NCBI GenBank assembly: GCA_022843525.1
Contig: JALHNR010000015.1
Coordinates: 1-24,283 of the forward strand
DNA from: Methylocystis sp.
Lineage (GTDB): Bacteria > Pseudomonadota > Alphaproteobacteria > Rhizobiales > Beijerinckiaceae
Reading direction: 5' to 3'
Length of the DNA: 24,283 bases
Of this stretch, positions 2,947-24,283 are shown in pieces. Each line of letters opens with the position of its first letter. Positions within the stretch are counted from its first letter, which is position 1. The position numbers and the translations under genes are program-made. The notes beneath the pieces are model-generated. The model ran no database searches and had not been told where the DNA came from. It was given only the letters and a program-made list of their open reading frames with translations.

Positions 2947-2987
2947 CGGCATTGTCCCCGGTTCTCCGCTCGAAGGAGTGTGATGCG

Positions 2988-3965: not shown

Positions 3966-3968
3966 TCA

Positions 3969-5834: not shown

Positions 5835-5851
5835 ACCATTGCAATTCAGCT

Positions 5852-5884: not shown

Positions 5885-5945
5885 GGTGATCAGTTGTTAC
5901 CGCAACAGACGCAGCACTCGCCGAATAATGTTAGGAGAAACGCGA

Positions 5946-6632: not shown

Positions 6633-6745
6633 AATTTGGACCAGCGGCTGACGAAAGAAGCATTGGGAGCGGAACGCCATGGAAGATGGCATTCTCTAAG
6701 TTCTCCCGCTTGTAATTTTGCCTCGACCCGAGGGACCGGCTCTAG

Positions 6746-7018
6746 ATGGAGACCGTTGCACGAGCGTTGTCGCCGATAATAGCTCGAGCCTTGAATCTGG
6801 AAGACGGGGGGTTTCCAAATCTGGAGATCCGCAACGGTGAGCTCGTTGGAACGATAGTTGCTTGTGCGGTAGAAATGCGCGCTGACCTGATCGTTATGCA
6901 GACCGATGGTCGCGATAGCGCTTTGGACTCGATCATCGGGAGCACAACCGAGCGCGTCATACACGAAGCGCCTTGCTCCCTAGATGACGTGAACCGAGAG
7001 CGTCTGTTTGGAAGGTAG
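6746..7018 (+). CDS. Universal stress protein (UspA-family) C-terminal fragment, probably truncated
   Basis: The 90-aa ORF ends with the USP C-terminal signature ADLIVMQTDGRDSALDSIIGSTTERVIHEAPCS. An in-frame TAG sits immediately upstream of the ATG. The N-terminal half of a normal USP domain of about 140 aa is missing. Confidence 0.5.
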   Translation: METVARALSPIIARALNLEDGGFPNLEIRNGELVGTIVACAVEMRADLIVMQTDGRDSALDSIIGSTTERVIHEAPCSLDDVNRERLFGR

Positions 7019-7102
7019 CGGCGACTCGGGAACTTTCACAGGGTGCTTTGCTTTTTGATGCGCAGCGCCTGCCGGTTCGCTGCTGAGTTTCAGGAGGGCG
7101 TC

Positions 7103-9409: not shown

Positions 9410-9421
9410 TCCGCCACTTGC

Positions 9422-9820
9422 ATGGAAGCCTATTACTTCGAGATTCGCGCTGTCCACATCGCGGCGGCGCTCGCGAGCGGCGGCTTCTACCTTATGCGCG
9501 CGCTCGCTTTAAACTTGCTCGCCGCGTCATGGCCGCTGTCGATAGTCGCGCGGCTTGCCTCCTACTCGATCGATACCGTGCTCTTTACGGCTGCCCTCAT
9601 GCTGATGGCCGTCACGCGTCAATACCCGTTTGGTGACACTTGGCTGACCATGAAGGTCGTGGTCATGCTGCCGCTCTATATTTTCCTTGGTTACTGGGCG
9701 CTCCGAGCCAAGGCGTTCAAGTTGCGGTTGGCGGCGATGGCCGGCGCGATCGCGGCTTTTCTTTTGATTTATAGCATCGCACGCACGCACAGCCCGCGGG
9801 GCGTGTTTGCGCTTGGGTGA
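9422..9820 (+). CDS. SirB2-like small integral membrane protein
   Basis: 132 aa with four hydrophobic segments. SirB2-like features are IRAVHIAAALASGGFYLMR, SIDTVLF and PFGDTWLTMKVV. It starts 12 nt after the norB stop, so it is probably co-transcribed. Confidence 0.65.
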   Translation: MEAYYFEIRAVHIAAALASGGFYLMRALALNLLAASWPLSIVARLASYSIDTVLFTAALMLMAVTRQYPFGDTWLTMKVVVMLPLYIFLGYWALRAKAFKLRLAAMAGAIAAFLLIYSIARTHSPRGVFALG

Positions 9821-9861
9821 GAAACGTCGTCAGCTTGGTCGGCCTTGCCTCGAACCCGCCT

Positions 9862-11070
9862 TTACGTCGTTGGATGCAAGCGCTTCGTCGTCAACATCCC
9901 GAAATAGAGCAGCACGAAGAGCCCGTACGCCAAGCTCCACATGCCCCCGGCGGCGGCGATCGCAGCAAAGTAATACGCGCCCGTAAAAGGGGCGCCAATG
10001 CGCAGGATGGCCGCAAATGTTATGGCGATGTAGATCGCGGCCGTTCTCTGATCTGCGACGAGCGGGCGCCCGGTGTGGCCGCGCGTTGCACGAGTCATCA
10101 CCGCGAGCGTCATTGTTCCGATGGCGCCGACGGTGAGGGCATGCAGAGGCGCTGCAGAATCCGTGGCCCAGAATAGTTTGTTGCCGCCCATGAGCAGGAA
10201 GCCCAAGGGAACCCAGCCATATCCCAGATGCAGCACGAAGAGCATCGGTTCCGCCCGCGCGCTGACGCCGCGCCAGCGGATAAGACGTAGAAAGAGCGCC
10301 GCCCCGGCGATAATCAGGAGACCCGCCGTAGGCCCCGCGTCAGGGAACGCGGCCCAGGCGATGAGCGCCACAAGCGTCGCCGCCAGCGCGAAACGATCGA
10401 AAGCGCCGAAAGGCGCCGGCTCCACTTCAGCTGGCGAATTCTTCGCGAGCCAGTTGCGGGTGAAGCTCGGCGTGATGCGCCCCCCGATGATGGCGATGAG
10501 CATGACGAGGGTCGCGACGCCGACGCGGGCCCCGATGGCGCCCGTTGCGGCAAGGCCGATCGCTTCGAGATGCGTGAGCAAATTCCCGATAAAGAGAAGC
10601 GCAAGAGCGGCCACCATGGGCAAGTTGCGCCAGTTCCGCCCCGTGGCGATCTCGCGCGCGACAACGAAGATAAAGACCGCCGGGAAAGCGAGGTCGAGCG
10701 CCGCAGAGACGAGCGCAGGCGCACTATTTGAAGTCAGGACGGCGATGCGCCCCAGCAGCCAGAGAGCGACGAGGCCGGCGAGCGGCGCGCCTTGTAAGGG
10801 CAGTCGACCGGTCCAGTTTGGAATGGCCGTCAGCAAGAATCCCGCGACGACGGCGCCGCCAAAACCGAAGGCCATTTCATGCGCGTGCCAGAGAGAGGGC
10901 GCGAAGCGTGTCGGCAGTTCGGCCGCCGCCTCCAGATAGGCGATGGAGAGCGGCAGCCCGACAGCGGCCCAGAGCGCGGCAAAAAGGAAGAAGGGGCGGA
11001 AACCCGCTGAAAGAAAGATCGCCACAGGGTTTTGACTCGCCTGAGCGCGATATCGCGGAATTGGAGGCAT
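9862..11070 (-). CDS. nnrS: NnrS family haem/copper membrane protein (NO-stress associated)
   Basis: 402-aa polytopic membrane ORF. The N-terminus carries GFRPFFLFAALWA, WHAHEMAFGFGGAVVAGFLLTAIPNWTG and GRITPSFTRNW, typical of NnrS. It is convergent with the norB-sirB2 unit. Confidence 0.9.
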   Translation of the reverse strand: MPPIPRYRAQASQNPVAIFLSAGFRPFFLFAALWAAVGLPLSIAYLEAAAELPTRFAPSLWHAHEMAFGFGGAVVAGFLLTAIPNWTGRLPLQGAPLAGLVALWLLGRIAVLTSNSAPALVSAALDLAFPAVFIFVVAREIATGRNWRNLPMVAALALLFIGNLLTHLEAIGLAATGAIGARVGVATLVMLIAIIGGRITPSFTRNWLAKNSPAEVEPAPFGAFDRFALAATLVALIAWAAFPDAGPTAGLLIIAGAALFLRLIRWRGVSARAEPMLFVLHLGYGWVPLGFLLMGGNKLFWATDSAAPLHALTVGAIGTMTLAVMTRATRGHTGRPLVADQRTAAIYIAITFAAILRIGAPFTGAYYFAAIAAAGGMWSLAYGLFVLLYFGMLTTKRLHPTT

Positions 11071-11097
11071 CGTTGACTTCCCCTTTGGAATTGATGA
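10461..11097 (-). repeat. Left copy of a roughly 0.63-kb direct repeat (5' third of nnrS plus about 25 nt of leader)
   Basis: It aligns base-for-base by eye with 18704-19334, with roughly one mismatch per ten bases and one 3-nt indel (EAAAELP versus ETAELP). Confidence 0.85.
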
Positions 11098-11189
11098 TGG
11101 GCTGGCGCTCGGTCACTAACGCACACATCGAGCGCGCAGGTCGCGAGCCTCGCGTTAGAAGCCAGCGGAATGTCACGGAGGGGAGGGGA

Positions 11190-11490
11190 AGATCAATAGG
11201 CCTTCTCTTGCGACACCATTCCTTCTTCTACGCGGATTCCCCGCAGATTGCGAAGGCGTTGCGAGGAAAGCGTCGCGCGCCACCGGCGTGGGTTGCGCTC
11301 GGGGCGTTCCTCGCCCTTGTGACCGCGACGACATGGATATCGACGAGCTCTTCCGCGAACCGCCGCGGGCGGCTGAGCGATAGTGGCCGAATTCGGTAAC
11401 GCGATGGCCAAGCCGAACGCGCGTCACTGCCACTCGTGGTCAAATCGCGGCGCTCCCTGATCAGTGGTGCAGGATCCGTGCAACCTCATG
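11190..11490 (-). pseudogene. Nitrile hydratase accessory/activator-like gene, decayed
   Basis: The ATG (complement of 11488-11490) overlaps the alpha-subunit 3' end. It reads MRLHGSCTTDQGAPRFDHEWQ-TGA-RAFGLAIAL. This resembles the accessory-protein motif (P-x-F-D-E-P-W-Q-x-R-A-F-A-L) but carries an in-frame stop. Downstream similarity is scattered over three frames. Confidence 0.45.
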
Positions 11491-11976
11491 ATGGCGCTCC
11501 GGCCAGCGCGACAAGCATATCGACTCGGTCGTCACGAGCTCCATCAGCTGCGCCTCGGTAAAATCCTCTGTCGCTGCTGGCCTTTCAGGAATTACGAAAC
11601 ACCGCGCCGTCCCGCTGCTGTCCCACACCCTGATCTCCGTTTCCTCGGGCAGTGGACGCCAACCTCGGCGAGCACTTTCCGCGGCTCGCGGGCCGCGCGG
11701 GCGCGAAATACCGGATCGGCAATCCCAGCACCGGCCATGGGAAGCACGAGCAAAGCGAGCAGATGATCAGGTTGTGCACCTCGGGCGCGTTAGCGACGGC
11801 CCGCAGGTGCTCGCCCTCGGCGCCGGCCATTCCCTCGGGCAGGTCGAGTTTGGCAATTGCGGCCGGGGTGTCGGCCAGGAGCCGGGCCAAGAAGCCCGCG
11901 TCGGTCCACGCTCGCACGACGATCTTTCTTGCCGTTGAGCGGACGCGGTCCTGCGGATACTTGAATGGCCGCTCAT
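11461..11976 (-). pseudogene. Nitrile hydratase alpha-subunit-like gene with multiple frameshifts
   Basis: The metal-binding claw motif is IICSLCSCFPWPVLGLP (codons at 11744-11761), preceded by RKIVVRAWTDAGFLARLLADTPAAIAKL. The C-terminal sequence continues in two other frames (DPVFRARAAREPRKVLAEVGVH, then LPEETEIRVWDSSGTARCFVIPERPAATEDFTEAQLMELVTTES). The ATG overlaps the beta stop (ATGA) but is out of frame with the conserved part. Confidence 0.8.
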
Positions 11977-12673
11977 GCAGGTTCCTCCAAGTATATCTCG
12001 AACAGTTCGGCGTAAAGCGTCTGCGCGCCGGGTTCCGCGCGCGGACCCCACAATTCGGTCGGCGTGAACTCGACGATGTAGACGGGCATTGGATCGCCGA
12101 TGCCATCGCCAGTGTGCCAGAAGTAGACACAGTCGCCTTCGAGCACCTGCGCCACCGTGCCGCTCCGCCCCCGCAGATAGCCGGGCAGGCGAGTGTGCGC
12201 GCCAACTGGGACATTTGCGATCCGGACCCGCTGCCCGACGGCGAACTTCGAATGCGCGACGTCGCGCCGCGGGCTGTCGCCGTTACGTAGATATGCGATG
12301 ATCTGCTCGTCGATGGCTTCAGCCCGATCGGATCCCCTGGCCGAGCGCCGTCCGGCCTGGCCGCTTCGCCACGCAGTTAGCTTGTCCGCGAGGCTAATTC
12401 GTCCTCGCGCAGGTATCCTTGTCGACGAGGAATGGGGATGCCGCTGAGCCACTTCTCGTAGTAACGGAATTTGAAGTAGTCGAATGGATCCATCGCCTCG
12501 GCGCCAGCGCGCAGATCCGCCCATGTCCACATGTCGCGGAAGGCGGTCGGCACGTAGGCGATCGCGCAGGCCGGCACGGACGAGTCGAGATGGCCCGAGA
12601 GAGCCATCATCGCCACATAGATGCCGAATATCCGATTTCCCACTGCCTCGGCAGGCTGGTTCAGAAAAAAGGG
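11973..12673 (-). pseudogene. Nitrile hydratase beta-subunit-like gene, 5'-truncated and frameshifted
   Basis: The N-half lies in one frame (12377-12643: DPFDYFKFRYYEKWLSGI). The C-half lies in another (FAVGQRVRIANVPVGAHTRLPGYLRGRSGTVAQV...VYIVEFTPTELWGP...LYAELFEIYLEEPA). An in-frame stop at 12674-12676 removes the usual first roughly 25 residues. No start codon is available for an independent C-half. Confidence 0.75.
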
Positions 12674-12817
12674 TCAATTCGGATCTGGAGCGCTTTTCCG
12701 ACGTTGTCCAAAATAGGCTCAGAGTTGTGGAAGGCAAAGGCCGCAACACGCCGACGGTGGAATCGGAGGATCAGGGACGACGCGCGCGGAAGATGCGGAG
12801 CGGCGGCGAATGAGCGC

Positions 12818-13200
12818 ATGACGCCTAAAGAAGTTGTCGCGCTGGTTCTTCAAGGCGGCGGCGCGCTCGACGCCTATTAGGCGGGCCCGTTCGAGGCGCT
12901 CGCGGCGGGGGATATTGTCCGCAGTGGCTCGCCGGCATTTCGATCGGCGCGATCAACGCCGTGATCATTTGCCGCAATCATCCGGAAAAGCGCGTCGAGC
13001 GCCTGCGCGCCCTTTGGGAACGCGTGATAAGCAGGACGCCCCTTCCCTTCAATCTGGACGGATTCCTCGGTCCCATTTTTGCCAACGCCAGCGCAAATCC
13101 CCTAGCGACGGTTGGCGCGCCCGGTTTTTAGGCTGCGTCTACCGCCTCCGGCCCTCTTATGGCCCTATTCAGCGCCCGGCTATCCCACCTCATATCTTCC
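12818..13200 (+). pseudogene. Patatin-like phospholipase gene remnant
   Basis: It reads MTPKEVVALVLQGGGALDAY-TAG-AGPFEALAAG. It then continues in another frame as PQWLAGISIGAINAVIICRNHPEKRVERLRALWERV (G-x-S-x-G nucleophile elbow) and in a third frame as PVFRLRLPPP. It ends after about 130 codons against the convergent sigma gene. Confidence 0.75.
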
Positions 13201-13261
13201 CTTCCGAATAGTTCCATCAAGCAGACTTATGCGGCTGAGGTACGGGGCTCTCGACCCGCCG

Positions 13262-13987
13262 CTACTCTTCGCTGGCCAGCCCTTCCGCTTTACAGCGTTC
13301 GAGGACACCGGTCACGATGCGGTCGCACCGCGCGCCGGCGAAGGCGAAAACGTCGCTTAAGCCCGCGTCCATCTCCTGGGCAAGGCTTTCGCGCAACAGG
13401 CTGCTAGCTCGGAAGAAGCGCGTACGCACCGTCGCCTCGGGGATCTCCAGCGCCTCGGCGGTTTCTTCGACGCTCATCTCCTCGATCGCGCGCAGCATGA
13501 ACACCGTCCGGAAGGCCTCCGGCAGAAGGTCGATGCGCGCCTCCAAGAGCTTGCGCATCTGAACCCGCATCATCGATTGTTCTGGGCTACGCTCAGGCTC
13601 ATCGTTCAGCGCTGTCTGGGCTTCAGATTCATGGGGCGTCATGGCAGCTTCCAAAGGAATGATCTGGGCACTCTTTCGCCACAAGCGGCCGAGCGCTTCA
13701 TGGGTCGTGATCCGCACAAGCCAGGTATAGAGCTTGCTCTCGGCGCGATAGTTTCCAAGCGCGCGCCACGCCCGCAGATAGGTGTCCTGGACGACATCCT
13801 CCGCCTCCGCATCATTGTGCACGATGCTACGCGCCGTACGGAACAGAAGCTGGTTGTGCCGTCGCATGATGGCTTCGAACGCCACTCCGTCACCGTCAGC
13901 GGCGCGCGAGATCAGCTCTGCCTCCGGCGTGGTTTTCGATAAGCTATTTGCCGCCTGACGCTGAAGTGATTGCATTTGCGCCTCCAT
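13262..13987 (-). CDS. ECF-type sigma-70 family sigma factor with a short Cys-containing C-terminal extension
   Basis: Region 2 is AEDVVQDTYLRAWRALGNYRAESKLYTWLVRITTHEAL. Region 4 is LPEAFRTVFMLRAIEEMSVEETAEALEIPEATVRTRFFRA. A roughly 35-aa tail follows (DVFAFAGARCDRIVTGVLERCKAEG). ATG 13975, behind GGAGG, is an alternative start. Confidence 0.85.
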   Translation of the reverse strand: MEAQMQSLQRQAANSLSKTTPEAELISRAADGDGVAFEAIMRRHNQLLFRTARSIVHNDAEAEDVVQDTYLRAWRALGNYRAESKLYTWLVRITTHEALGRLWRKSAQIIPLEAAMTPHESEAQTALNDEPERSPEQSMMRVQMRKLLEARIDLLPEAFRTVFMLRAIEEMSVEETAEALEIPEATVRTRFFRASSLLRESLAQEMDAGLSDVFAFAGARCDRIVTGVLERCKAEGLASEE

Positions 13988-14195
13988 TCATTGAACAGGT
14001 AGGCTACCGGCGTGCCTTTGCCGGCGCTGCCGCTATAGGGATCGCGCGCGCCGCGTCTTCCGGATCGCGCAGCAATTCCATCATGCCCGCGACCATCGCG
14101 AAAGCGATCAACGCGTCGATGAGTATCACGGCTCCTTTCCGGGCGTACGGGCGATGGCGGGGCGCCGTTCCGTCGTCGCCCTTGGCGTTGTCCGA

Positions 14196-14609
14196 CTAAT
14201 GTTCGAACTTCGTTGGGAAGGCGGCGATCAAACCGTTGGTCAGGGCATCGGCCAGCATCATCATATGAGCCTCCGCCTTTCCATATTCGGCGATGCCGTT
14301 GGCATATTTGCCCTGCAAAAGCCCCGTGGCGTAGACCACAGTTGTGTCGATATGCCCCTTGAGCCTGTCGCGTACCTTGGTTTGCGGCCAGTTCTCGTTC
14401 GCCTTGGCGAGAAAATCGGCAATTTCCTGCGCGTTTGCGTAGGCGGCTGCGACGGACTTGTCGGTGGCCGGCTTGTCGCCGGCCTTGGCGGCTTTCACGA
14501 CCTCGACGGCTGCGCCGATATGCTCCTGAAGCAGCTTGGTGAGCGCGTTACCAGCTGCATCGCCATAGAAGGGCTTGATAGCGTCGCCGATATCGGGCTG
14601 GTTCTGCAT
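14196..14609 (-). CDS. Hypothetical all-alpha protein (conserved-looking, function unknown)
   Basis: 137-aa ORF ([43 protein letters not shown]...) with helical-repeat character. Its ATG shares one base with the stop of the upstream signal-peptide ORF. Confidence 0.6.
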
Positions 14610-14740
14610 CAGTCGCGCTGCATGTTAACGGAATAGGCGGCGGTCGGGCGGAAAACGGGAGTAGCCATAAGTGCGGCGGCGAAGCCCGCAAGGGCGAGGC
14701 GGCGATTAACGGCCGGGTGGAACATCTGCACGCGTGTCAT
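14609..14740 (-). CDS. 43-codon ORF encoding only a signal-peptide-like sequence (probably the detached 5' end of the 14196-14609 gene)
   Basis: The ATG (complement of 14738-14740) lies 6 nt after AAGGAGA. The peptide is [43 protein letters not shown]. Its stop overlaps the next ATG (TGATG). Confidence 0.35.
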
Positions 14741-14803
14741 GACGGTTCTCCTTGGTCGATCAGTTTGCGTAGCGGCCGGTGTGATCGACTCGATGCGGCC
14801 CCG

Positions 14804-14856
14804 TACATTCGATGCGACCCTTTCGCGCTGCGTTCCCGTTGCACGAGATTTTTTTG
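14804..14856 (-). promoter_or_regulatory. ECF (RpoE/AlgU-type) promoter-like element, copy A
   Basis: The minus strand reads TGCAACGGGAACGC-N17-TCGAATGTA. GGAAC is the complement of 14832-14836 and TCGAA the complement of 14808-14812. This puts the -10 about 65 nt upstream of ATG 14740. A second copy lies 277 bp away. Confidence 0.5.
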
Positions 14857-14952
14857 GGGGAAAAGAGAAAGCTTCCGAGCAGGTCGAGCGGCAGAGTACG
14901 GTCAACTCTAAAACATCCTGCGACAACACAAGCGCTGGATCGTAAACGGGCT

Positions 14953-14983
14953 GCGGAGGCGCTAAAACTCATAGCGCCTCCGC
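14953..14983 (-). terminator. Perfect 11-bp-stem hairpin between the two promoter-like copies
   Basis: GCGGAGGCGCT [9-nt loop] AGCGCCTCCGC, read directly. On the minus strand it is followed by AGCCCGTTTACG, which is only a weak U-run. Confidence 0.35.
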
Positions 14984-15080
14984 TATCGCACCAGCGTGAA
15001 TTTACGGGGGTTCCCGACGGTACGATATTTCTGTACAGAGCGGTAGCTGCCGCTCAGTTTTTCTCCGCACTCGCGCCCTG

Positions 15081-15131
15081 TATATTAGATGCGACCATTC
15101 CGCGCTGCGTTCCCGATGCAGGAATATTTTT
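15081..15131 (-). promoter_or_regulatory. ECF (RpoE/AlgU-type) promoter-like element, copy B
   Basis: The minus strand reads TGCATCGGGAACGC-N17-TCTAATATA. GGAAC is the complement of 15109-15113 and TCTAA the complement of 15085-15089. It matches copy A at roughly four of five positions over about 52 nt. Confidence 0.45.
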
Positions 15132-15231
15132 GGCTTTAGGCGTGTGGCCGGGTTTGTTCGCTTGGGCGCGAGCATCGAGGCGTTGCTCGAAGCTCTGGCG
15201 TCGAAGCGCTGCCAATGCTGCGAGCGGCGGA

Positions 15232-15759
15232 CTACGGATAGATAACGGCGCCGTCAGGTTGAATGACCGCGCCTGGAGTGAGATGGGCCGGCTCCAGACG
15301 ACCTTCCCCCAAAATGTGGAAAACGGTCTCCCCGCTGGCGATAAGATAATCGGCGACGATGCGGCGGTGGCATCGCCACCATACGGCTTCCGAACACATG
15401 ATGGTACAGCGCCGCTTGCGTCCTCTGTCCAAGAGGTGTTGGAGGCCTGCCTGAAACTGTGTAGTAAGCGCATAATCGGCGTAGTTGTGGAAACTCTCGT
15501 TCGTCCAGAAGGCGTTGACAGTCGGAGATATGCCGCGTGACCTTCCACGAAGGCCACCGAGGGCAGCCATATGTTCATAAGAGATGGCGACGGCCGCCAA
15601 GGCGCCGGGAAGCGTGTTCTTGTCAAACTGTGGATTGGTTCGTGACTTCGGAATCGTTCTGATGTCCGCGACAAGAGCGATATCGGCTTCGCGCAGCAGA
15701 CCGATGAAAGCCTCGAGGGTTCGGTTGGAATGGCCGATGGTGAAAAACGGAAGCTTCAC
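15232..15759 (-). CDS. DUF488 family protein
   Basis: 175 aa with the DUF488 pattern FTIGHSNRTLEAFIGLL, VADIRTIPKSRTNPQF and IMCSEAVWWRCHRRIVADYL. Confidence 0.8.
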   Translation of the reverse strand: MKLPFFTIGHSNRTLEAFIGLLREADIALVADIRTIPKSRTNPQFDKNTLPGALAAVAISYEHMAALGGLRGRSRGISPTVNAFWTNESFHNYADYALTTQFQAGLQHLLDRGRKRRCTIMCSEAVWWRCHRRIVADYLIASGETVFHILGEGRLEPAHLTPGAVIQPDGAVIYP

Positions 15760-15771
15760 GCGCGGCCTTCG

Positions 15772-15981
15772 TTATGCATAGTCGAGCGCGCCGCCCTTAT
15801 GCGCTGCGATGTGATCTGTCTTGTCGCTTTTGATTTCGTACTGGGGATCGTCTTTCGACGCGTGATGCGTGTGGCCTTTATAATCGAAATCTCTAATGTG
15901 AATGGCGATGATAGTCCCCGACACGCGTCCGGCCTCGGAGTTCCAGCTCACATGATCGCCGATCTTAAACTTCCGTGCCAT
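15772..15981 (-). CDS. DUF2945 (HVA/Tudor-like) small protein
   Basis: 69 aa: KFKIGDHVSWNSEAGRVSGTII ... DDPQYEIKSDKTDHIAAHKGGAL matches the DUF2945 pattern. It lies 12 nt upstream of DUF488 on the same strand. Confidence 0.75.
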   Translation of the reverse strand: MARKFKIGDHVSWNSEAGRVSGTIIAIHIRDFDYKGHTHHASKDDPQYEIKSDKTDHIAAHKGGALDYA

Positions 15982-16064
15982 CGCTGCGTCCTCCCGGTTC
16001 CAAGAAGCGCTTCTCCCAAACAGATGGATCCGAAGTCTACGCCCGGCGCCAGCACCACGGAAGC

Positions 16065-16770
16065 CTAGGTCGTCGGCAGCCGGAAGGTGAAGGTCTCCAG
16101 AAAATTCAGTTCGACGGCCGTGCTGGAATAGCTCGTGTAACCAACGGATATGTCCCGACCGATATCTAACTCGAAGTCACCGCTGCAGGTCGTGCGCACG
16201 ACGCTGCCTTCAATGGCGGGCGCCAGATGATCCCTCCGTCCACCATACGCTCAAGATGGTGAAAAACCGGATAGCCCTGGACGCTTCCGCCACTCGCGGC
16301 GGTGTAGGTGTCTAGCCCGAGCACGAGCGCGTACGGACCGTGTCGCCGGCGAGCCGCAACTGGCTGACCCGCCTGAGCGAGGCGCTTGGGTAACCCGGAC
16401 GTTGGAAGGCAGCACAACGCCCTGATTGCTGCTGGCCTCGCGAATGGTGAATGCCTGCCGCAGCGTACCCATCGGACACAGCGCGATCCTTTGCAAAGGG
16501 GATTTCCCGGGCACCCAATCTGAATCCATTGCGCCGCGCTCCACGTCGTCGATCGCTTGCCGCGTCAGACCGTCTGGAATACGATCCAGAACGACTTGCC
16601 GACCCTGAAACAGCAGATGACGACGGGGACGAAGATGACTGCTGAATGGGACAGGTTCACGCTACGGAAATTGCCATGCTGAGGCTGATCCTGATAGCAA
16701 ACAGCCACGTTACCATTTTGCCAAGCCTTTGTATCAACCCGCCAATTCTGAATCCAACAATGGGCACGCA
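16065..16770 (-). pseudogene. Family-1 encapsulin shell protein gene, heavily frameshifted
   Basis: Encapsulin-like segments are spread over all three minus frames. They are PQHGNFRSVNLS; LTRQAIDDVERGAMDSDWVPGK; EIPFAKDRAVSDGYAAAGIH; REASSNQGVVLP; HGPYALVLGLDTYTAASGGSVQGYPVFHHLERMVDGGIIWRPP; and SGDFELDIGRDISVGYTSYSSTAVELNFLETFTFRLPTT followed by a stop. Confidence 0.7.
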
Positions 16771-17054
16771 ATTAGCCGATGAAGACGGCAAAGATGCAGC
16801 TTGCGTGATCGGTGAGCAATTTTCTGTCTTTCACCAAGGATGGCGTCCCGTCTGATGTTCTTCCTGCTACTTTCACCATTGACAGGCTTAGGTCCGACTC
16901 AGTTATCCTTGTCACGGCGATCGAGTTCGCGCTCAACCGCCTGCGGCTGATGACCCCTGCTCTACATTGTGTCGGAGTCCGTCGTTGCTCTAGTCGACAA
17001 CCGCGGATGATGTCGCGTAATACCGCCCAGTAGCGATTATAGAACGGAGCGAGG

Positions 17055-18647
17055 GTGGCGATCATGGATAGGCCGGCCCGAATGATAGGCTGGCGATTCC
17101 TGCTGCTGAATGGCGCGGCGGGGGCGGCGAATGTCGTCATGCTCTCGAACGTTCCGGGCTACACGGTGCTCGCGCCCTATGCCGCCGGCAGTCTGCAGGG
17201 CGTGACGCCGAGCTTCGGCACCTGGGCGACCACCGACCACATGGTGGGAATCGCGCTCGGCCTGCCACTGTCGCGGTGGTTCTCCGGGCGCTTCGGCGAC
17301 TATCGCGTGCTGATCGGCGCGCTCGTTGTCTACGCCATCTTCTCGCTGATGTGCGCGGCGAGCGAAACCATCTGGTTTTTCGCGCCGATGCGCTTTCTCC
17401 TCGGACTTGCCGGCGGCGTCGCCCTTCCGCTCGCCCAATCCGTGACGCTTGCGCAATATCCGGATCACCAGCGCACGCTCGGCGTCGGCTTCTGGGGCGT
17501 CATGAGCATGGCGCCCTTCACCATCGGCGTATTCATGGGCGGCTTCTGGGCCGAATATTTCGACTGGCGCTGGCTATTTTATTCCAACGTCTTGGTCGTG
17601 ATGCCCGTCGCGGCGATCATCGCCGCGCTGTTCTACCGGCGCGGCTTTCAGCGCCGCATGACGCGCTTCGATACGATCGGCTTCATTCTGCTCGCCGCGG
17701 TGCTGCTCGGCGTGCAGACGATTCTCAACATGGGCAATGATTTCGACTGGTTCGCGGAGCCTCTCCTCGGATGGCTGCTGCTCGTCGTGCTGCTGGCGCT
17801 GCCGATGTTCATCTTTTGGGAGTTCGGCGAACGACGGCCCGCGCTAGACCTGCGTCTGTTTCTGCATCGCAACTTCGCCATCGCGACTTTCTGCTCGATC
17901 GTCGGCTTCCTGGTGATTCAGGGCCTGCTCTCGGTGTTCATCGTGCAATTGCAGGTGCTGCTCGGCTACACGTCCTCGCTCGCCGGCATGGTCTATCTGA
18001 TCATGATTTTTCTGGCGATGGCGGCCGCGGCCGTCGTGCATGAAATCACGAGGAACGTCGACGCGCGACTGATCGTGTTCCTCAACTTCATCGGTCTCGC
18101 AGTGACCTTTGTCTGGCTCGGACAATACGACAAGAACGCCTATTTCGATGACGTCAAGACGCCGATGTTCTTTTTCGGCTTCTCGCTCGCGATGTTTTTT
18201 GCGCCGCTCGCTACCCTCGCCATGACCGGGCTCGTCGGCGAACGACTGATCCGCGCGGCGGAAGAGCTCGCGATGCTGCGCACCGTGGCCGGCGCCCTGG
18301 GCATCTCGCTGCTCGGCGTTCTCTTCTTCCGCCGAACGCCGTTCCATCAGCTCGATCTCGCCGATCATTTCGGCGGACGGCGCTTCGCCTCGCTCGACCT
18401 GCTCGCCACTTTCCTGGATCGCATGCAGGCGATGGGCATGTCGCCCACCGCCGCGCAGAGCCGCGCGGCGCAGCTCATTCGACAGCAGGCGTCGATCCTC
18501 GCGCTCAACGACGTCTTTCTGTTCGGCGCAATGGCGTTCATCCTGCTCTCGGGAGTCGTCTGGCTCGCCTATCCAAGCTACGCGTCCAAGAAGCGCAAAC
18601 AATCGCTAACACGGCTTTCCGCCGAGGAACTGATGGAGCAGCCCTGA
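17055..18647 (+). CDS. MFS transporter, DHA2 (EmrB/QacA-like, 14-TMS) family
   Basis: 530-aa ORF with about 14 hydrophobic segments. MFS motif-like loops are LSRWFSGRFGDYRVL and LGLAGGVALPLAQS. The central and C-terminal extra helices are typical of DHA2. No membrane-fusion (EmrA) partner is adjacent. Confidence 0.8.
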   Translation: MAIMDRPARMIGWRFLLLNGAAGAANVVMLSNVPGYTVLAPYAAGSLQGVTPSFGTWATTDHMVGIALGLPLSRWFSGRFGDYRVLIGALVVYAIFSLMCAASETIWFFAPMRFLLGLAGGVALPLAQSVTLAQYPDHQRTLGVGFWGVMSMAPFTIGVFMGGFWAEYFDWRWLFYSNVLVVMPVAAIIAALFYRRGFQRRMTRFDTIGFILLAAVLLGVQTILNMGNDFDWFAEPLLGWLLLVVLLALPMFIFWEFGERRPALDLRLFLHRNFAIATFCSIVGFLVIQGLLSVFIVQLQVLLGYTSSLAGMVYLIMIFLAMAAAAVVHEITRNVDARLIVFLNFIGLAVTFVWLGQYDKNAYFDDVKTPMFFFGFSLAMFFAPLATLAMTGLVGERLIRAAEELAMLRTVAGALGISLLGVLFFRRTPFHQLDLADHFGGRRFASLDLLATFLDRMQAMGMSPTAAQSRAAQLIRQQASILALNDVFLFGAMAFILLSGVVWLAYPSYASKKRKQSLTRLSAEELMEQP

Positions 18648-18689
18648 GAGACCGTTTGAGAATGGTTGCGACGGAGATAGGGGCGTGAT

Positions 18690-19310
18690 TCAAGCTCGGG
18701 ATTTGAAGCTCGGCGTGATGCGGCCCCCGATGACGGCGATGAGCATGACGAGGGTCGCGACGCCGACGCGGGCCCCCAAGGTGCCCATAGCGTCAAGGCC
18801 CATCGCTTCGAGATGCGTGAGCAAATTCCCGATGAAGAGAAGCGCGAGAGCGGCAACCATGGGTAAGTTGCGCCAGTTCCGCCCCGTGGCGATCTCGCGC
18901 GCGACAACGAAGATAAAGACAGTCGGGAAAGCGAGATCGAGCGCCGCGGAGAAAAGCGCAGGCGTGCTATTCGAAGTCAGGACGGCGATGCGCCCAAGCA
19001 GCCAGAGAGCGACGAGTCCGGTGAGGGGCGCGCCTTGTAAGGACAGCCGACCAGTCCAGTTTGGAATAGCCGTCAGCAAAAAGCCCGCGACGACCGCGCC
19101 GCCAAAACCGAAGGCCATTTCATGCGCGTGCCAGAGAGAGGGCGGGAAGCGTGTCGGCAGTTCGGCCGTCTCCAGATAGGCGATGGAGAGCGGCAGCCCC
19201 ACGGCGGCCCAGAGTGCGGCAAAGAGAAAGAACGGACGGAATCCCGCTGAAAGAAAGATCGCCAGAGGGTTTTGACTCGCCTGAGCGCGACATCGCTGAA
19301 TCGGAGGCAT
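18690..19310 (-). pseudogene. nnrS: Truncated second copy of nnrS (first roughly 200 codons only)
   Basis: From ATG (complement of 19308-19310) it reads MPPIQRCRAQASQNPLAIFLSAGFRPFFLFAALWAA...GGRITPSF, then diverges (KSRA-stop). By my count there are about 16 substitutions and one codon indel versus the full copy over about 200 aa. The 268-aa track ORF is a spurious 5' extension. Confidence 0.85.
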
Positions 19311-19334
19311 CGCTGACTTCCCCGGAATGAACGC
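18704..19334 (-). repeat. Right copy of the roughly 0.63-kb nnrS 5' direct repeat
   Basis: It pairs with 10461-11097 in the same orientation. At the inner junction, AAGCTCGG occurs twice, at 18692-18699 and 18706-18713, straddling the point where similarity begins. Confidence 0.85.
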
Positions 19335-19929
19335 TCCGCGCCATCTAATGAATTTACTCGGTTCTTTCCTACTTCCTGTTGCGGCGGTCGCTACACAGCA
19401 AGCAGACGCGGCCTCCTTGTAATTTGTCCCCGAGCCAAGGGATCGGCTCGAGATGGAGACCTTTGCCCGAATCGCGCAGCGTGGGTAACGATACATCGAA
19501 GAGGGGTCTGCGTCATTTTACAGGATTTGCATTGCCAAAGCGGTCTTCTGCATCTCGATAGCGCCTGACAAAGAAATCGAATTTGGGCTCGGGCACGGAG
19601 TGGCCGAAACCATCACCCTCCGCCGCATCGCTCTGTAGTGTGTCGCGTGAATGACTTCGGCGAGACGGATTTCATGGATCCGCTCCATCAAGGCGCTGAA
19701 TTTCGGCTTCCTTCTTGAGCCAGAAGCGCCCGATTTGCTCGGCGATAATACGCTCGATCTCGGGCACGAGCCGAATGCGCCTTCCGGCGTTCCTCGCTGT
19801 TGTTGTGCGAGACTCGAAATAAGTCGTGTGCACAGAAAACGCGACGCCATACGAAAGTAAGGTTGACCTTGGGATATCGAATCGCCTGAGGCGGCTCTCG
19901 AAACAGGTCACGCCCGCTGGCGACCGCCG

Positions 19930-20109
19930 TTACAACGCACGGATTTCATCATTTTGCCCAGAGACATAAACCTCGACGCCGTCGAGACGCGAAACGATCG
20001 GTCGGATGCTTTCGGCGGGCAGCATTGAAAAGGCCGTAGAAAGCGCATCGGCGATCGTCGCGGTCTGAGCGATCCATTCCGCTTTACAGCCTGTGAAGAT
20101 GAAGCGTCG
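19930..20109 (-). pseudogene. ApbE/NosX-family (FAD:protein FMN transferase) C-terminal fragment
   Basis: The open frame of 59 codons ends ...WIAQTATIADALSTAFSMLPAESIRPIVSRLDGVEVYVSGQNDEIRAL-stop. The T-A-x-x-A-D-A-L-S-T-A motif is characteristic of the ApbE C-terminus. An in-frame stop lies immediately upstream, so only the tail remains. Confidence 0.5.
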
Positions 20110-20149
20110 CTACCTCGCCGACGGCGCGATCACTTGCGCCACGCCGGTC

Positions 20150-20445
20150 ATGGCGGCCGAAGAGCTGGGCGCACGTCGACTTGTCGTGCTGCCGACCGGT
20201 CACGCCTGCATGCAGGTTCGTGAACTCCGCTGGATCAACTGGTGGAGATCCGTCGCAAGATTGCCGATTTAAAGCGGCTCAAGCGGGGGATGGAGGAAAT
20301 GGCGGCGCAGTGCAGCGGAAAGCGAACGCCCGAATGCGCGATCATCGACGCTCTTTTCGATACGCGGCATCCATCCGATGAACACCGTGGGCGTCAGCCG
20401 CCATCCAAGAGTGCGCGCGCGGCGAAGAGCGCCTTGCCGATCTAA
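20150..20445 (+). pseudogene. MerR-family (CueR-like) regulator remnant lacking the N-terminal HTH
   Basis: It reads LDQLVEIRRKIADLKRLKRGMEEMAAQCSGKRTPECAIIDALF. This is the dimerisation helix plus a C-x7-C metal loop as in Cu(I)-sensing MerR proteins. An in-frame TGA lies 7 codons upstream of GTG 20242. The preceding GHACMQVRELR piece is in another frame. Confidence 0.55.
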
Positions 20446-21220
20446 AACGCTGTCACGGCTGTCGGCTGGCGTCCCTCGCTGGCATCTGCCGAATTGGGCC
20501 GGTTAGATGAACGAACGGGGTGACAAAAACTGTCGATGTTGCGGAGCCGCTCAAGGCGATTAGGCGCCATAACCTGGCGCAACAACTTTCGTCTGAATTT
20601 CCAAACGGCGGCGAATGGCGCCGCCGGCTCATGTTTCTCGCTTCTTCCGTTCCTTTCGTGCGCCTCTTCTGATTGCGTCATCGCCGGCGCAAGCCGAGTG
20701 CTCGTCTGTTCAGATCTTGACCGGGATCGCCGCTGTTTTTGCACTCCGCATCGTTGAGCCGCTTCGTTTATCGGTCACCTTCGTACGCCGCGGAATTGCG
20801 GGCGTCGTTGTTCCCCAAAGTCGTTTTGCCTGGCGCAGTGCCTATTCTTTGCCGGTTGGACCCGTGATTGTGGACTGCCGTGAGATCGAAGCGAGCCCCT
20901 CGTCAAGGTTCACGAGGTCTGATTTCCCGACGATCGGAATTCGCAGCGACTTTCCCATCGCTCTCCGTTGCGCCCGCCCGCCTCCGTTGCATGGCGTTTG
21001 GTCCTATGGCCGCAGTCGCCACCCAAAACCCTGCGGCCGCAACGATTTTCCCCTTGGCGCTCAAGCGCCAATTCCTCGCGCAACAAAATCGCCGCGGCCT
21101 TAGGGTCCTCCGCTTCTCACTTCGGCCTCGCGCTTTCCGGCGCTTCGGTTATGGCGTCGCCTTTTGCGGCCATCACGGACAGCCATCGCAACCGGGGCAA
21201 ACGCCCCAACGATGGAGAGC

Positions 21221-21593
21221 ATGATGAAGACTTTCGCGGAATTCCAAATCCTCGGCCGCATCAACAAGGCAGACGACACGCGTTTCGATCTGCGCCAACT
21301 ACGCATTCAAGGACCGCAACGGCGAGACGAAGGACAAGCCCTATTGGAACGAGATTACGATCTGGAGCGAGAGCGCGCGCAAATACGTCTGTGACTATGC
21401 GAAGCCCGGCGATCTCGTTGTAGCGCGCGGCACGCTGAAGCAGGGAAGCTTCGAGACGGACGGCGAGAAGGTCTATACTGTCGACCTCAACTGCGACGAC
21501 TTCTCGATCCTCGCCTCCGCTAAGATGGACAAGTCCGACGAGGAAACCGAGGCGGCGCCCGAGATGACGAAGAAGACCGCAAGACGCAAGTGA
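21221..21593 (+). pseudogene. ssb: Plasmid/ICE-type single-stranded DNA-binding (OB-fold) protein gene with a frameshift
   Basis: Frame A reads MMKTFAEFQILGRINKADDTRF. After about 21290 the sense continues in frame +1 as ANYAFKDRNGETKDKPYWNEITIWSESARKYVCDYAKPGDLVVARGTLKQGSFETDGEKVYTVDLNCDDFSIL, with an acidic/basic tail and TGA at 21591-21593. Confidence 0.6.
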
Positions 21594-21598
21594 ATCGA

Positions 21599-21626
21599 AC
21601 GAGGGGCGGCGAACGCCGCCCCTCGT
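21599..21626 (+). terminator. GC-rich 12-bp hairpin just after the ssb-like stop
   Basis: ACGAGGGGCGGC [GAAC] GCCGCCCCTCGT, read directly. It starts 6 nt after the stop, and no U-tract follows. Confidence 0.4.
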
Positions 21627-21646
21627 CCAGCTCGTATATCTTGCAT

Positions 21647-21983
21647 AGGGCGGTCCGAGTTTGTCCCGGACAAACGTTTTAGACTAGGCCTTGCCTTTAG
21701 AGCTCCCCAGAGCACGACAAGACTTTTCAGCAGTTTGCCCAAGGCAAACTTTTCGCCGCTCGCCGCGCAGGGGCGGGCCGAGTTTGTCCAGGACAACCTT
21801 TTTCGGCGACGCCAAATGTTGATCTCAGATTTTTCCAAGCGGTGAGATTGAGTTTCCCTGGGGCAAACATTCCCGCTTGGTTGCTGGAGTTTGTCCGGGA
21901 CAAACTTTTTTGGCGCCGGGCCTTGCCTTCAGAGCCCCCGAAAAGGCGACAAAGCTCGTGAGTCCAGCTTGCCCGGGGTAAGG
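21647..21983. repeat. Array of 5-6 palindromic repeats, consensus (G)AGTTTGYCC-n1-3-GGRCAAAC(TTTT): candidate centromere (parS), operator or iteron cluster
   Basis: Copies lie at 21657-21675, 21731-21749, 21780-21797, 21850-21868 and 21887-21905, with a degenerate copy at 21965-21983. Copies 1 and 5 share about 65 bp of extended flank (..GGCCTTGCCTTYAGAGCYCCC..CGACAA). Copies 1 and 3 share the left flank AGGGCGGKCCG. The array sits between the ssb-like gene and parA. Confidence 0.7.
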
Positions 21984-22168
21984 ACTTCGACGCCCTGGCG
22001 GGCGCAAATGACCGCTTGCCTCTCTTACCCCCGTGAAATTTTGCAGTGGTTCTCATTCGGCGCGCCGGGGCAAAAACTCCGGCGTCGAATCGATTCGAAT
22101 CGACAGAGCCAGAGGAGACAGACTATGACGGCCGCCAATCGAGATTGTCGTGACGACCGAGCAGCCTC

Positions 22169-22917
22169 ATGAAGGCGCTCGTCGTGAACAATGAGAAGGG
22201 CGGCGTCGGCAAGAGCACGATCGCCGTGCATCTCGCCTGGTATTTTGCAGAGCGCGGTAAACGCGTTCTTTTCCTCGACCTCGATCCACAGAGCAATGGC
22301 ACAACGACGCTTGCGGCGCATGCTGTTGGGATCGACGCCGCTGCCCTCTTTGCGCGCCCGGTCGCCGTTCCATCGATGGCGAGCGCTGGCATTCGGGTCC
22401 TGGGCGGCAGCGCCGCCTTGCGCGGCATCGTCGCCGTAGACGGCAAGCTAATCGAACAATTCCGCTCCAATATTAAAGACGCGTCGCGCGCCTATGACAT
22501 TGCGGTCATCGACACGCCGCCAACCTTCGGCGTGCGCAATCTCGCGGCGTTGATCGCAGGTCAGTTCGTGCTGGCGTCGATCGACCTCGACGACTACGCC
22601 TCGAGGGCATTGAAACGCTGCTCAAGCACATCCTCGGCGTGAAGCAGAAATACAATTCCGGCCTCGAGATCCTCGGACTGATCCCCAATTGGCTGCAGAC
22701 AACCTCGCCGCACCAGCGGGAGAATTTGAAGAGCCTCGTCCAGAGGTTCGGCACGAAATACCTGTTCGACGGCGTGATCCCGCAACGCTCGTAGATCGGC
22801 GAGGCGTTGGCGGAGAAAAAGCCGGTCTGGAACTTACCGAAGACAGCGGCGCGCGAGGCCGGCCGCGAGATGCGCATCGTATTCGACAAGCTCGCGACGA
22901 AAATGGAGATGGCATGA
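22169..22917 (+). pseudogene. parA: ParA/Soj-type partition ATPase gene with one frameshift and one in-frame TAG
   Basis: The deviant Walker A is NEKGGVGKST, with VLFLDLDPQSN and IAVIDTPP. The reading frame changes near 22590-22602 (DLDDYA / LEGIETLLKHILGVKQKY...GLIPNW). TAG at 22792-22794 interrupts IPQRS-*-IGEALAEKKPVW. The final TGA (22915-22917) overlaps the parB ATG. Confidence 0.85.
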
Positions 22918-23972
22918 GCTACGCTCGCAAACTCGATGATGTCGCGTTGCTGCTGGACGAACTCGAGGGCCTCGAATCGTCTGCCTCGAGCGGCAAGCCT
23001 CTCGAAATCCCGCTTTCGTCAATCGAGGAAGACCCAGATCAGCCGCGGCGCGCTTTCGACGCCGAGACGCTGGAGGAGCTCGCGGCCTCAATCCGGGAAC
23101 GCGGCGTCCTTCAACCGATCGGCCTCACTCCAGTGGGTCTCAATGGAATGCACCGAACCGTCTTCGGGGCGCGGCGCTTTCGGGCGGCGCAACTCGCTGG
23201 CCGCGCGACGATCGCGGCGTTCATTCATTCGGGAGAGGCCAGCGACCCTTACGACCAGATGATCGAGAATATCCAGTGGGACGACGTTTGGGCCGCGGAT
23301 ATCGCCGCATTCATTGCTTCCCGCCTTGCGGCGGGCGAGAAGCAGAAGGACATCGCGCTGCGGCTCGGCAAGGACAAGAGCTATATCGCCATGTATGCGG
23401 CTGTCGCGCAAATGGCGCCCGTGCTGCGAGAGCGGTTAACGACCTCGCCGATCCGCGCCGTCTATGAATTGCATCAGATGTGGAGAAAGTTTCCGCGGGC
23501 CGTCGAGGCGTTTTGCGCGCAACATGACTCGTTCACCCGCGTACAAGTGGTCGCATTTTGCGAAGGTCTGAGCGGTCGGCCGCCGCGGACTGATGATTCG
23601 CCGCTGAGTGACGAACTGCATGACGCAGCCAATCCACATGACGACGGGGCCTTGCCGGGCGCGGATCGAAAGTTGAATTGCGCTCCGCAGGGACGGAAGC
23701 GTCGAACTCGGTCGGCTAGATCCATCCGGATGCGCTCGCGACGAAGCGCGGCGCCATTCGACACGACCAGAGCGACGGGCGTCCGAAGTGGCGCTGGCGA
23801 CGTTACGTGTCGAGCATGGGCAGCGTTACGGGCGGCTGTTGTTGGAGTGCGGATCGAGCAAGAGCGAGGCGCACGGTCTGGTCTTCTCTTCGAAGACGAC
23901 GGCACGGTCGAGGATGCGCCTCTCGCTGCGTTGCGGCTCGTGTCGCTGAAGATAGGCCTAGCGAATTCGTGA
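22914..23972 (+). CDS. parB: ParB/KorB-like partition and DNA-binding protein (C-terminal third possibly frame-disrupted)
   Basis: ATG 22914 overlaps the parA stop (ATGA). The ParB N-domain is LEIPLSSIEEDPDQPRRAFDAETLEELAASIRERGVLQPIGL and VFGARRFRAAQLAG. The HTH is EKQKDIALRLGKDKSYIAMYAAV. After about 23690 the in-frame sequence becomes Arg-rich. A KorB-like tail (LRVEHGQRYGRLLLE..., LFEDDGTVEDAPLAALRLVSL) is split between two frames. Confidence 0.75.
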   Translation: MSYARKLDDVALLLDELEGLESSASSGKPLEIPLSSIEEDPDQPRRAFDAETLEELAASIRERGVLQPIGLTPVGLNGMHRTVFGARRFRAAQLAGRATIAAFIHSGEASDPYDQMIENIQWDDVWAADIAAFIASRLAAGEKQKDIALRLGKDKSYIAMYAAVAQMAPVLRERLTTSPIRAVYELHQMWRKFPRAVEAFCAQHDSFTRVQVVAFCEGLSGRPPRTDDSPLSDELHDAANPHDDGALPGADRKLNCAPQGRKRRTRSARSIRMRSRRSAAPFDTTRATGVRSGAGDVTCRAWAALRAAVVGVRIEQERGARSGLLFEDDGTVEDAPLAALRLVSLKIGLANS

Positions 23973-24283
23973 CGGCAAGCCGGCCTTCACATCGTGCGTC
24001 ATGTAGCGGCTTTTCCATCCCGTAGGGACGAAGCGTAGCGGAGCGCCCGGAGGCCGCACGCGTTCTTCAAATAGCGCCGTAGTGAGGCCGGAGGGTGTGG
24101 GAAAGGCGCGGGCAAGAATCTAAGGGGGGGTCGGCAGCCTCGTCTCAATCTTCATGCCGCTGCGAACAATCCGAGGTCAACCGACGAACACGCCGGCACG
24201 CGAAGTCGACTAATCGGAATCGAGCCATCAGACTTGAAAGTGGAGCGCATCGTGTTTTTCGGAGGGGAGTGCAGGATAGGCTT

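Follow-up and report, generated by a model that had tools for sequence, protein, structure and literature searches.

The right half of a 24,283-nt stretch of Methylocystis sp. DNA (assembly GCA_022843525.1, contig JALHNR010000015.1, positions 1–24,283 of the forward strand; the whole stretch is called the window hereafter) carries a high density of broken genes. An original prediction, made from the sequence, had reported gene decay there, and this observation is confirmed: to the right of 11.1 kb, in ~13 kb, 12 of the 16 loci are broken, compared with one of the 11 loci in the left 11 kb (Fisher p = 0.0013). The 12 loci are the nitrile hydratase (NHase) accessory gene, nthA, nthB, a patatin gene, a gene for a hypothetical protein of 230 amino acids (aa) termed hyp230, an encapsulin gene, a truncated copy of nnrS (nnrS'), ApbE, a CueR/MerR gene, ssb, parA and, cryptically, parB. 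Judged by its collinearity with plasmids of Methylocystis rosea, the window belongs to a megaplasmid of Methylocystis and consists of two unequal parts. Very probably, the left part is a block for nitric oxide (NO) handling and denitrification under purifying selection, and the right 13 kb are a mosaic of dead DNA produced by rearrangement and in situ decay.

Broken and Intact Loci in the Window

All six frames of the right half were scanned against Pfam with stops masked as X, and the remnants were compared with the nthB-nthA-accessory operon of Rhizobium etli and with ssb, parA and parB of Methylocystis; in the left half, ten open reading frames (ORFs) were scanned against Pfam. The broken loci show clear homology to intact genes and have interrupted or truncated frames (partial-profile matches to Pfam/NCBIfam, tblastn), and the frameshifts of nthA, nthB and parA are not the same in the window, M. 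rosea and the metagenome-assembled genome (MAG) L009 (Methylocystis sp. Site2BBin3). Further, purifying selection is relaxed in comparison with neighbouring functional genes. The ratio of nonsynonymous to synonymous substitution rates against M. rosea (dN/dS, Nei–Gojobori method) is 0.47 for the broken segments vs. 0.13 for the left-half genes, counts being small, and the synonymous divergence (dS) of the latter is 0.108.

Every locus that had been named as broken proved to be so in the six-frame Pfam scans and the comparison with intact homologues, with 12 found where at least ten had been claimed. Two suspicions were also borne out: the signal-peptide ORF and the 137-aa ORF form a single 230-aa gene in relatives, split in the window by a 148-bp deletion, and positions 23686–23886, towards the 3' end of parB, match the reference only in another frame. 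The genes described as intact and interleaved with the broken ones, i.e., those for a sigma factor, DUF488, DUF2945 and an MFS permease, all have intact ORFs (Pfam, comparison with M. rosea). Left of 11.1 kb, full-length Pfam coverage and single-frame alignment with M. rosea agree that nothing is broken except a universal stress protein (USP) fragment. The nonsense codons (TAG twice, TGA once) had been counted correctly, but the list was incomplete, as nthB also contains a TAA and probably a second TGA. Lesions other than single-base indels are indeed present, namely nonsense codons, truncations and deletions of 14–148 bp. Confinement of the decay to the right half holds in this window but not past it, given that norB has stops in both M. 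rosea plasmids and that mobC is frameshifted beyond the window edge. Likewise, the proposal of genuine erosion rather than sequencing error stands in that the lesions are real, but about half of them are truncations at recombination or deletion junctions.

Real Lesions versus Sequencing Error

Several lesions recur identically in other strains. The TGA of the accessory gene, the TAG of the patatin gene, the probable TGA of nthB and the truncations of encapsulin and USP are all found in M. rosea BRCS1 (UK), in GW6 (Korea) and in strain L43, and the M. rosea-type block is also present in strain H62 and in two MAGs. Over 18.7 kb, 29 indel events separate the window from M. rosea, none of which falls within intact coding sequence (CDS), which makes up 66% of that DNA (12.4 kb; P = 2e-14). 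None of the 23 frame-shifting events does so either (P = 1e-11). Since the indels avoid functional genes, they are not random consensus errors.

Private to the window are the deletions of 112, 16, 148 and 14 bp, the TAA of nthB, the TAG of parA and six 1-bp deletions polarised against an in-frame reference (at 11965, 11651, 11518, 12333, 16222 and 22600); two further 1-bp differences from M. rosea, at 11163 and 16833, are located in unaligned remnant DNA or between genes and have no assigned polarity. An independent read-derived assembly, the Logan contigs of run SRR22388165, reproduces 6.7 kb of the window. Its contigs match 13013–14596 with one mismatch, 15133–17522 at 100%, a segment with five window-specific indels, the frameshift of encapsulin among them, and 21535–24283 at 100%, where both parA lesions (deletion and TAG) and the double shift of parB are located. 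Exact-match scans for the window-specific deletion junctions found none in genome contigs or metagenome contigs, and exact-product look-ups were empty for nine of 12 queries (the 241-aa start variant of the right-half sigma factor sigR, norB, the nthA' ORF, the 137-aa ORF, the nnrS' ORF, the nthB' ORF, a 106-aa ORF, the ssb' ORF and nnrS).

It is thus very improbable that the lesions are consensus or assembly errors, such as those of an unpolished long-read assembly, in genes that are truly intact. That explanation draws on the 20 single-base indels relative to M. rosea, 14 of which lie within 2 kb (11163–13161), and on the lack of second-assembly backing for the window-specific lesions of this interval. 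However, the homopolymer check that the original prediction had called for placed two of the 20 in runs of at least four, for about half of the single-base differences it is the M. rosea sequence that is frameshifted and not the window, and many lesions are nonsense substitutions or larger deletions (14, 15, 16, 112 and 148 bp). Together with the indel-free 12.4 kb of intact CDS, the identical lesions in independent UK, Korean and MAG assemblies and the 100% Logan matches across the parA, parB and encapsulin lesions, this means that the supposed errors are neither function-blind nor concentrated in homopolymers nor absent from independent assemblies.

Decay of the Nitrile Hydratase Operon and the Patatin Gene

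A functional NHase operon is no longer present: nthA has at least five lesions and nthB at least two, and the accessory gene combines a nonsense codon with loss of recognisable sequence. The nthA pseudogene (11518–11977, minus strand), which would encode the alpha subunit with a CSLCSC motif, matches Pfam NHase_alpha in pieces spread over three frames. Alignment with M. rosea and the Rhizobium reference revealed 1-bp deletions at 11965 (codon 4), 11651 and 11518, a loss of ~111–112 bp at 11942 that costs ~37 codons, and a 16-bp deletion at 11716 that removes the PYWYKD segment after the metal-binding motif. In M. rosea, nthA contains one private frameshift (window coordinate 11814), at which the window is in frame, and is otherwise complete. 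A hybrid alpha subunit repaired from both lineages aligned end to end with intact Rhizobium nthA (68%), and because of this full-length alignment the ancestral structural genes are taken to have been intact or nearly so.

In the nthB pseudogene (11979–12685, minus strand), the NHase_beta_N and NHase_beta_C domains of the beta subunit lie in different frames, as also seen by tblastn. It is interrupted by a TAA at 12379–12377, and a 1-bp deletion at 12333 parts its two domains. An upstream TGA near 12676, common with M. rosea, is probably in the coding frame; the N-terminal 30 residues are not reliably alignable and hence this codon is only a probable lesion. The M. rosea gene has four private frameshifts relative to the window, two of which are also found in MAG L009. 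As for the accessory gene, its remnant extends over 11176–11500 (minus strand, ends approximate), with real homology at 11397–11456. A TGA at 11426–11424, common to four assemblies including M. rosea, appears as HEWQ*RAFG in a tblastn alignment with the Rhizobium accessory protein, and TIGR03889 is readable at positions 1–18 of 74 only (E = 0.006).

The gene order is that of the nthB-nthA-accessory operons on Rhizobium plasmids (e.g., pRetIE4771e), to whose alpha subunit the repaired one is 68% identical over its full length, with the difference that all three genes are pseudogenes in the window. The Rhizobium enzyme has the metal-binding motif CTLCSC and adjoins the cobalt transporter genes cbtA/cbtB, whereas the motif in the window is CSLCSC (11750–11770, minus strand).

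The patatin-like phospholipase remnant (12818–13128, plus strand) has a TAG at 12878–12880 in common with M. rosea and a slip in a G-run at 12907. Its first ~100 aa are left; after conceptual repair, they match positions 1–79 of 191 of Pfam Patatin (8.7e-11), and the raw sequence matches as well.

Truncations at Rearrangement Junctions

On the sequence evidence, the remnants of encapsulin, nnrS', ApbE, CueR and USP and the 3' end of the patatin gene are truncations at rearrangement junctions and not products of gradual erosion. The shell gene of a Family 1 encapsulin (16068–16393, minus strand) retains the C-terminal 105 of 253 profile positions and has suffered an additional 1-bp deletion at 16222. 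Instead of the ~253 positions of a complete HK97-fold encapsulin, only positions 149–253 of Linocin_M18 are left, as 149–212 and 207–253 in two frames, compared with one frame in M. rosea.

The nnrS' locus (18690–19323, minus strand) duplicates the 5' half of nnrS in truncated form and matches positions 2–200 of 371 of Pfam NnrS. In a self-blast comparison, 18704–19323 is a 623-bp copy of 10461–11083, i.e., the 5' end of nnrS plus 13 bp upstream, with 91.8% identity. The pair forms a direct repeat bracketing a 7.6-kb block of mostly dead genes, and the second copy is missing in the M. rosea plasmids. The junction at 18703/18704 is sharp and likewise missing in M. rosea, collinearity with which stops at 18702/18704. 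A 55-bp stretch upstream of nnrS' (19416–19470) is 83.6% like 6709–6763, a sequence immediately before the USP fragment and norB; the similarity may mark a regulatory site common to both places or what is left of a second nor-nnrS cluster.

A probable C-terminal tail of ApbE (19933–20097, minus strand) matches positions 229–265 of 266 of the Pfam profile at E = 0.0067, below the curated cutoff. The C-terminal tail of a CueR-type MerR regulator (20224–20442, plus strand) comprises the last 42 residues of TIGR02044 CueR (85–126 of 127; E = 1.6e-7), and the helix-turn-helix is missing. A peptide between the two, YLADGAITCATPVMAAEELGARRLVVLPTG (20111–20200), had been considered patatin-like and was dropped, as Pfam/NCBIfam gave no support. 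No Pfam/NCBIfam family was found for the 230-aa protein, for ORF 124–675 or for the ORFs at 14812–15540, 16772–17140, 19518–19850 and 20615–21103.

Constraint on the Surviving Right-Half Genes

The original prediction had regarded the surviving genes as candidates for selection. This applies to the MFS, DUF488 and DUF2945 genes, which look constrained, on few sites, but not to the sigma factor gene. The EmrB-like DHA2 MFS efflux permease (17055–18647, plus strand) is intact (NCBIfam EmrB, 2.9e-75, positions 32–500 of 501) and 99.4% identical to that of M. rosea. DUF488 (15232–15759, minus strand) and DUF2945/Hva1_TUDOR (15772–15981, minus strand) cover their Pfam profiles in full, and their aa sequences are 98.9% and 100% identical, respectively, to those of M. 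rosea. The dN/dS values against M. rosea are 0.18 for MFS and 0.21 for DUF488, and DUF2945 shows a single synonymous difference only.

The right-half ECF sigma factor gene, sigR (13262–13987, minus strand), has an intact ORF with Pfam sigma-70 regions 2 and 4, yet it differs from M. rosea by nine nonsynonymous and no synonymous substitutions, eight of the nine being window-specific. Six of the changes (A82T, S100Y, N109H, R116W, I189T and R208S, in alignment-column numbering) affect positions conserved among homologues from M. rosea, MAG L009, two Ensifer genomes and two other MAGs; five of these positions are strictly invariant and one is I/V. From this pattern, sigR appears to be an intact-but-decaying ORF that evolves without constraint in the window lineage, which fits with the death of its neighbour hyp230 in the same lineage. 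That the exclusively nonsynonymous change reflects adaptation rather than decay is unlikely.

The secreted hypothetical protein hyp230 (14196–14740, minus strand) is interrupted by the 148-bp deletion at 14621, where a Logan contig also ends, and tblastn with the intact M. rosea protein finds residues 1–39 and 90–230 in different frames; the gene is also intact in MAG L009. Between hyp230 and DUF488, a 60-bp direct repeat with 85% identity (14798–14857 and 15075–15133) is located at or near which the Logan contigs break. In the same intergenic region, PLSDB lists an RGI-predicted otr(A) (BRCS1 23061–23288, GW6 21067–21294; ~14910–15140 in the window), a tetracycline-resistance call that is almost certainly spurious.

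The ssb-parA-parB-mobC Module

Neither a full-length ParA nor an in-frame C-terminal part of a KorB-like ParB is encoded in the window. The ssb pseudogene (21224–21590, plus strand) has a 14-bp deletion after 21267, located by a four-way nucleotide alignment, and is detected by tblastn in two frames; it is intact in MAG L009. In parA (22169–22914, plus strand), a 1-bp deletion at 22600 and a TCG to TAG change at 22792–22794 are found, and parA of MAG L009 has a 1-bp deletion of its own, 13 nt from that of the window. The parB ORF (22914–23972, plus strand) is open, with the ParB_N and KorB domains in frame and ~23686–23886 out of frame. This segment matches the reference ParB only in the alternative frame, which scores 109 against ParB of M. 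parvus (ATLRVEHGQRYGRLLLE...HGLVF), and thus indicates two compensating frameshifts that garble the linker and half of the C-terminal domain. Beyond the right end of the window (~520–1030 bp past it, Logan contig positions 2801–3314), mobC is frameshifted as well, with residues 1–63 and 62–171 in two frames.

In MAG L009, ssb-parA' (window 20201–22753, 90% identity) is fused at ~5606/5607 to nthA' (residue 79), so that parA is cut at residue 195 and parB is lost altogether; this junction could be a large deletion or a misassembly of the MAG. Five copies of a palindrome, GTTTGTCCnGGACAAAC, lie between ssb and parA (21648–21920); they are candidate centromere or operator sites and candidates for ParB/KorB binding. 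Four sites occur at no more than three mismatches vs. 0.12 expected by chance, and similar palindromes are present in the same intergenic region of MAG L009 (four) and of M. parvus pMpar-2 (two).

The Intact Block of the Left Half

The intact control block (642–11070) consists of genes for a yncE-like protein, an ECF sigma factor, an 86-aa putative anti-sigma factor, a multicopper oxidase and a 621-aa protein (hyp621), followed by folE, norB, sirB2 and nnrS. Pfam profiles are covered end to end by the yncE-like beta-propeller (642–1619), the ECF sigma factor (1904–2608), the multicopper oxidase (2952–3965), folE, sirB2, nnrS (9862–11070) and both domains of the 788-aa, qNor-type norB product (7043–9409). 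Pfam coverage of hyp621 (3969–5834) is full length, and the putative anti-sigma factor (2615–2875) has a weak NCBIfam match only. These genes are collinear in a single frame with their M. rosea homologues except in the 5' extensions of two ORFs, hyp621 (indel at 3973) and folE (indel at 5969), both indels being upstream of the annotated M. rosea starts. The one broken locus, the USP fragment (6746–7018, plus strand), retains the C-terminal half only (Pfam Usp positions 77–136 of 141) and shows indels relative to M. rosea at 6841 and 6974.

In the sister plasmids, norB is dead: the BRCS1 gene (15071–17431) has two in-frame stops, and that of GW6 (13122–15437) has one stop and an 8-bp duplication. 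With regard to the 621-aa protein, weak cupredoxin-like matches (pseudoazurin/amicyanin) are combined with a YncE/lactonase-type beta-propeller. Its best NCBIfam match is the model ‘clade III lactonase-type nitrous-oxide reductase’, at 61.7 bits vs. a cutoff of 700, and it is under strong purifying selection (dN/dS 0.07). The putative protein of ORF 124–675 (183 aa) is 98.4% identical to the equivalent M. rosea sequence, which is not listed there as a CDS.

Related Plasmids and Mosaic Divergence

By megablast, positions 1–18702 are collinear with M. rosea BRCS1 unnamed2 (NZ_CP044330) and GW6 pGW6_2 (NZ_CP034088) at 96–98% identity, and 20.9–24.3 kb resemble the ssb-parA-parB-mobC backbone of M. 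rosea plasmid unnamed1 and M. parvus pMpar-2 (82–84%). The M. rosea plasmids and the window have two stop codons (TGA in the accessory gene, TAG in the patatin gene) and the stumps of encapsulin and USP in common. The M. rosea plasmids differ in their own nthA and nthB frameshifts and norB stop codons, in keeping hyp230 intact and in lacking nnrS' and the ssb-parAB segment at the corresponding position. Plasmid-borne norB is already known in Methylocystis (PMC3794950). As in Methylocystis sp. SC2, with its plasmid-borne nitric oxide reductase, norB homologues are located on megaplasmids, the left half of the window being such a block; however, no close match to the SC2 plasmids was among the megablast hits of the window (PMC3794950).

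Divergence from the BRCS1 plasmid, determined over window positions 1–18700, varies between 0.2 and 11% per 400 bp. It is low at 6001–6800 and 17600–18400 (0.2–1%) and high at 6800–8000 and 9600–10800 (5–11%), a mosaic that points to recombination among related plasmids. Further, dS against M. rosea is ~0.2 for nnrS, sirB2 and the 3' part of nthA and 0.0–0.05 for segments right of 11944. This step in the divergence values suggests that a recombination breakpoint coincides with the 112-bp deletion.

Discussion

The lesions, their distribution among lineages and the contrast in selection are observations; from these, we infer in which order the events took place and that the partition/mobilisation module is redundant, as follows. 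Illegitimate recombination and deletion junctions would have left the stumps of encapsulin, nnrS', ApbE, CueR and the patatin 3' end and, in the left half, of USP. The NHase operon probably died first through the nonsense codon of its accessory (maturation) gene, common to all lineages; this gene is placed first because its nonsense codon is shared and its remnant is the most degraded. Thereafter, nthA and nthB would have decayed in parallel, each plasmid lineage gathering frameshifts, nonsense codons and deletions of its own. In the window lineage, the 148-bp deletion also killed hyp230 beside the ECF sigma factor gene, which now gains only amino-acid-changing substitutions. The ssb-parA-parB(-mobC) segment is seemingly a plasmid backbone remnant that is no longer needed and decays here and, independently, in the related MAG; the module could have become redundant, for instance, after cointegration of two plasmid types.

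That the right half was instead built almost wholly by rearrangement of fragments already dead, with little ongoing decay in situ, we regard as improbable. Such a history would account for the six loci that are clean truncations at junctions, the sharp junction at 18703/18704, the direct joining of parA' to nthA' in MAG L009 and the mosaic divergence profile. However, nthA, nthB, parA, hyp230, ssb and the encapsulin stump carry single-lineage lesions on collinear DNA of 90–98% identity, and private lesions on collinear DNA require mutations that came later than the present arrangement; relatives, moreover, still have intact hyp230 and ssb.

There is hardly any likelihood that some of the broken genes are still expressed by recoding (programmed frameshifting or stop-codon read-through) or function as split or shortened proteins, such as the 137-aa ORF or the 157-aa N-terminal ATPase fragment of ParA. 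Three features would be compatible with residual function: an ATG of the 137-aa ORF itself overlaps the stop codon before it, the 157-aa ORF of parA keeps the Walker A motif KGGVGKS, and the parB ORF is still open. Nevertheless, individual genes have multiple independent lesions that differ between lineages, and essential parts are gone, such as the signal peptide of hyp230, the C-terminal half of ParA, 37 codons of nthA and PYWYKD; no recoding signal was seen, none having been searched for. A different kind of residual role, in cis, is conceivable for the dead ssb-parA-parB-mobC module because the palindromes GTTTGTCCnGGACAAAC are kept in the window and its relatives while the genes decay. 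The replicon might then hitch-hike, being partitioned or regulated in trans by ParB/KorB of a co-resident plasmid of the M. rosea plasmid-1 type, though we consider this unlikely.

Rearrangement combined with decay in situ is thus the history we favour, and several points count against it. The window-specific lesions at 11.1–13.0 kb, at 14621 and in ssb were found in no second assembly. The order in which the accessory gene comes first rests on one shared nonsense codon and the poor state of the remnant, and the proposed redundancy of parAB would depend on parts of the replicon beyond the window. Few substitutions underlie the right-half dN/dS values (25 in the intact genes), which are therefore noisy, and the mosaic divergence complicates, via recombination, any reading in terms of a molecular clock. 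Finally, scanning the right half against Pfam in six frames revealed no remnants of insertion sequences or transposases, unlike what is typical of plasmid pseudogenes (PMC11229322).

Events of the window lineage are strongly biased towards deletion, with ~313 bp lost vs. ~23 bp gained in our own tally, a small sample polarised by two relatives and reading-frame logic only. This resembles the deletional bias in bacterial pseudogenes that Mira, Ochman and Moran reportedly described in 2001.

Approximately three-fold more pseudogenes are found on plasmids than on chromosomes, and related plasmids inherit them vertically (Hanke, Wang & Dagan 2024, PMC11229322). In line with that survey, the window shows a high pseudogene density on a large plasmid and inheritance of lesions among close plasmids. 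Backbone and mobility functions are commonly lost on plasmids, often by segmental deletion (PMC11229322), and here parA, parB, mobC and ssb are non-functionalised, partly by segmental deletions. Most plasmid pseudogenes in the survey are decayed insertion sequences (PMC11229322), whereas those that died in the window are backbone genes and genes of metabolism (nitrile hydratase, patatin, encapsulin).

For annotation, it follows that 12 loci in 11.1–24.0 kb are to be called pseudogenes or fragments, and that the open ORFs of parB and of the right-half ECF sigma factor are no proof of function. The phenomenon itself is known: the findings support the pseudogene load of plasmids, deletional bias and the loss of backbone functions, and raise no new question. 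This is ordinary plasmid gene decay, well displayed since a given gene is damaged differently from one related plasmid to another. It provides a natural example of the stepwise, parallel decay of an operon on a plasmid, in which one shared lesion in a maturation gene is probably followed by lineage-specific lesions in the structural genes, next to a gene block that is conserved in the window strain yet partly dead (norB) in its relatives.

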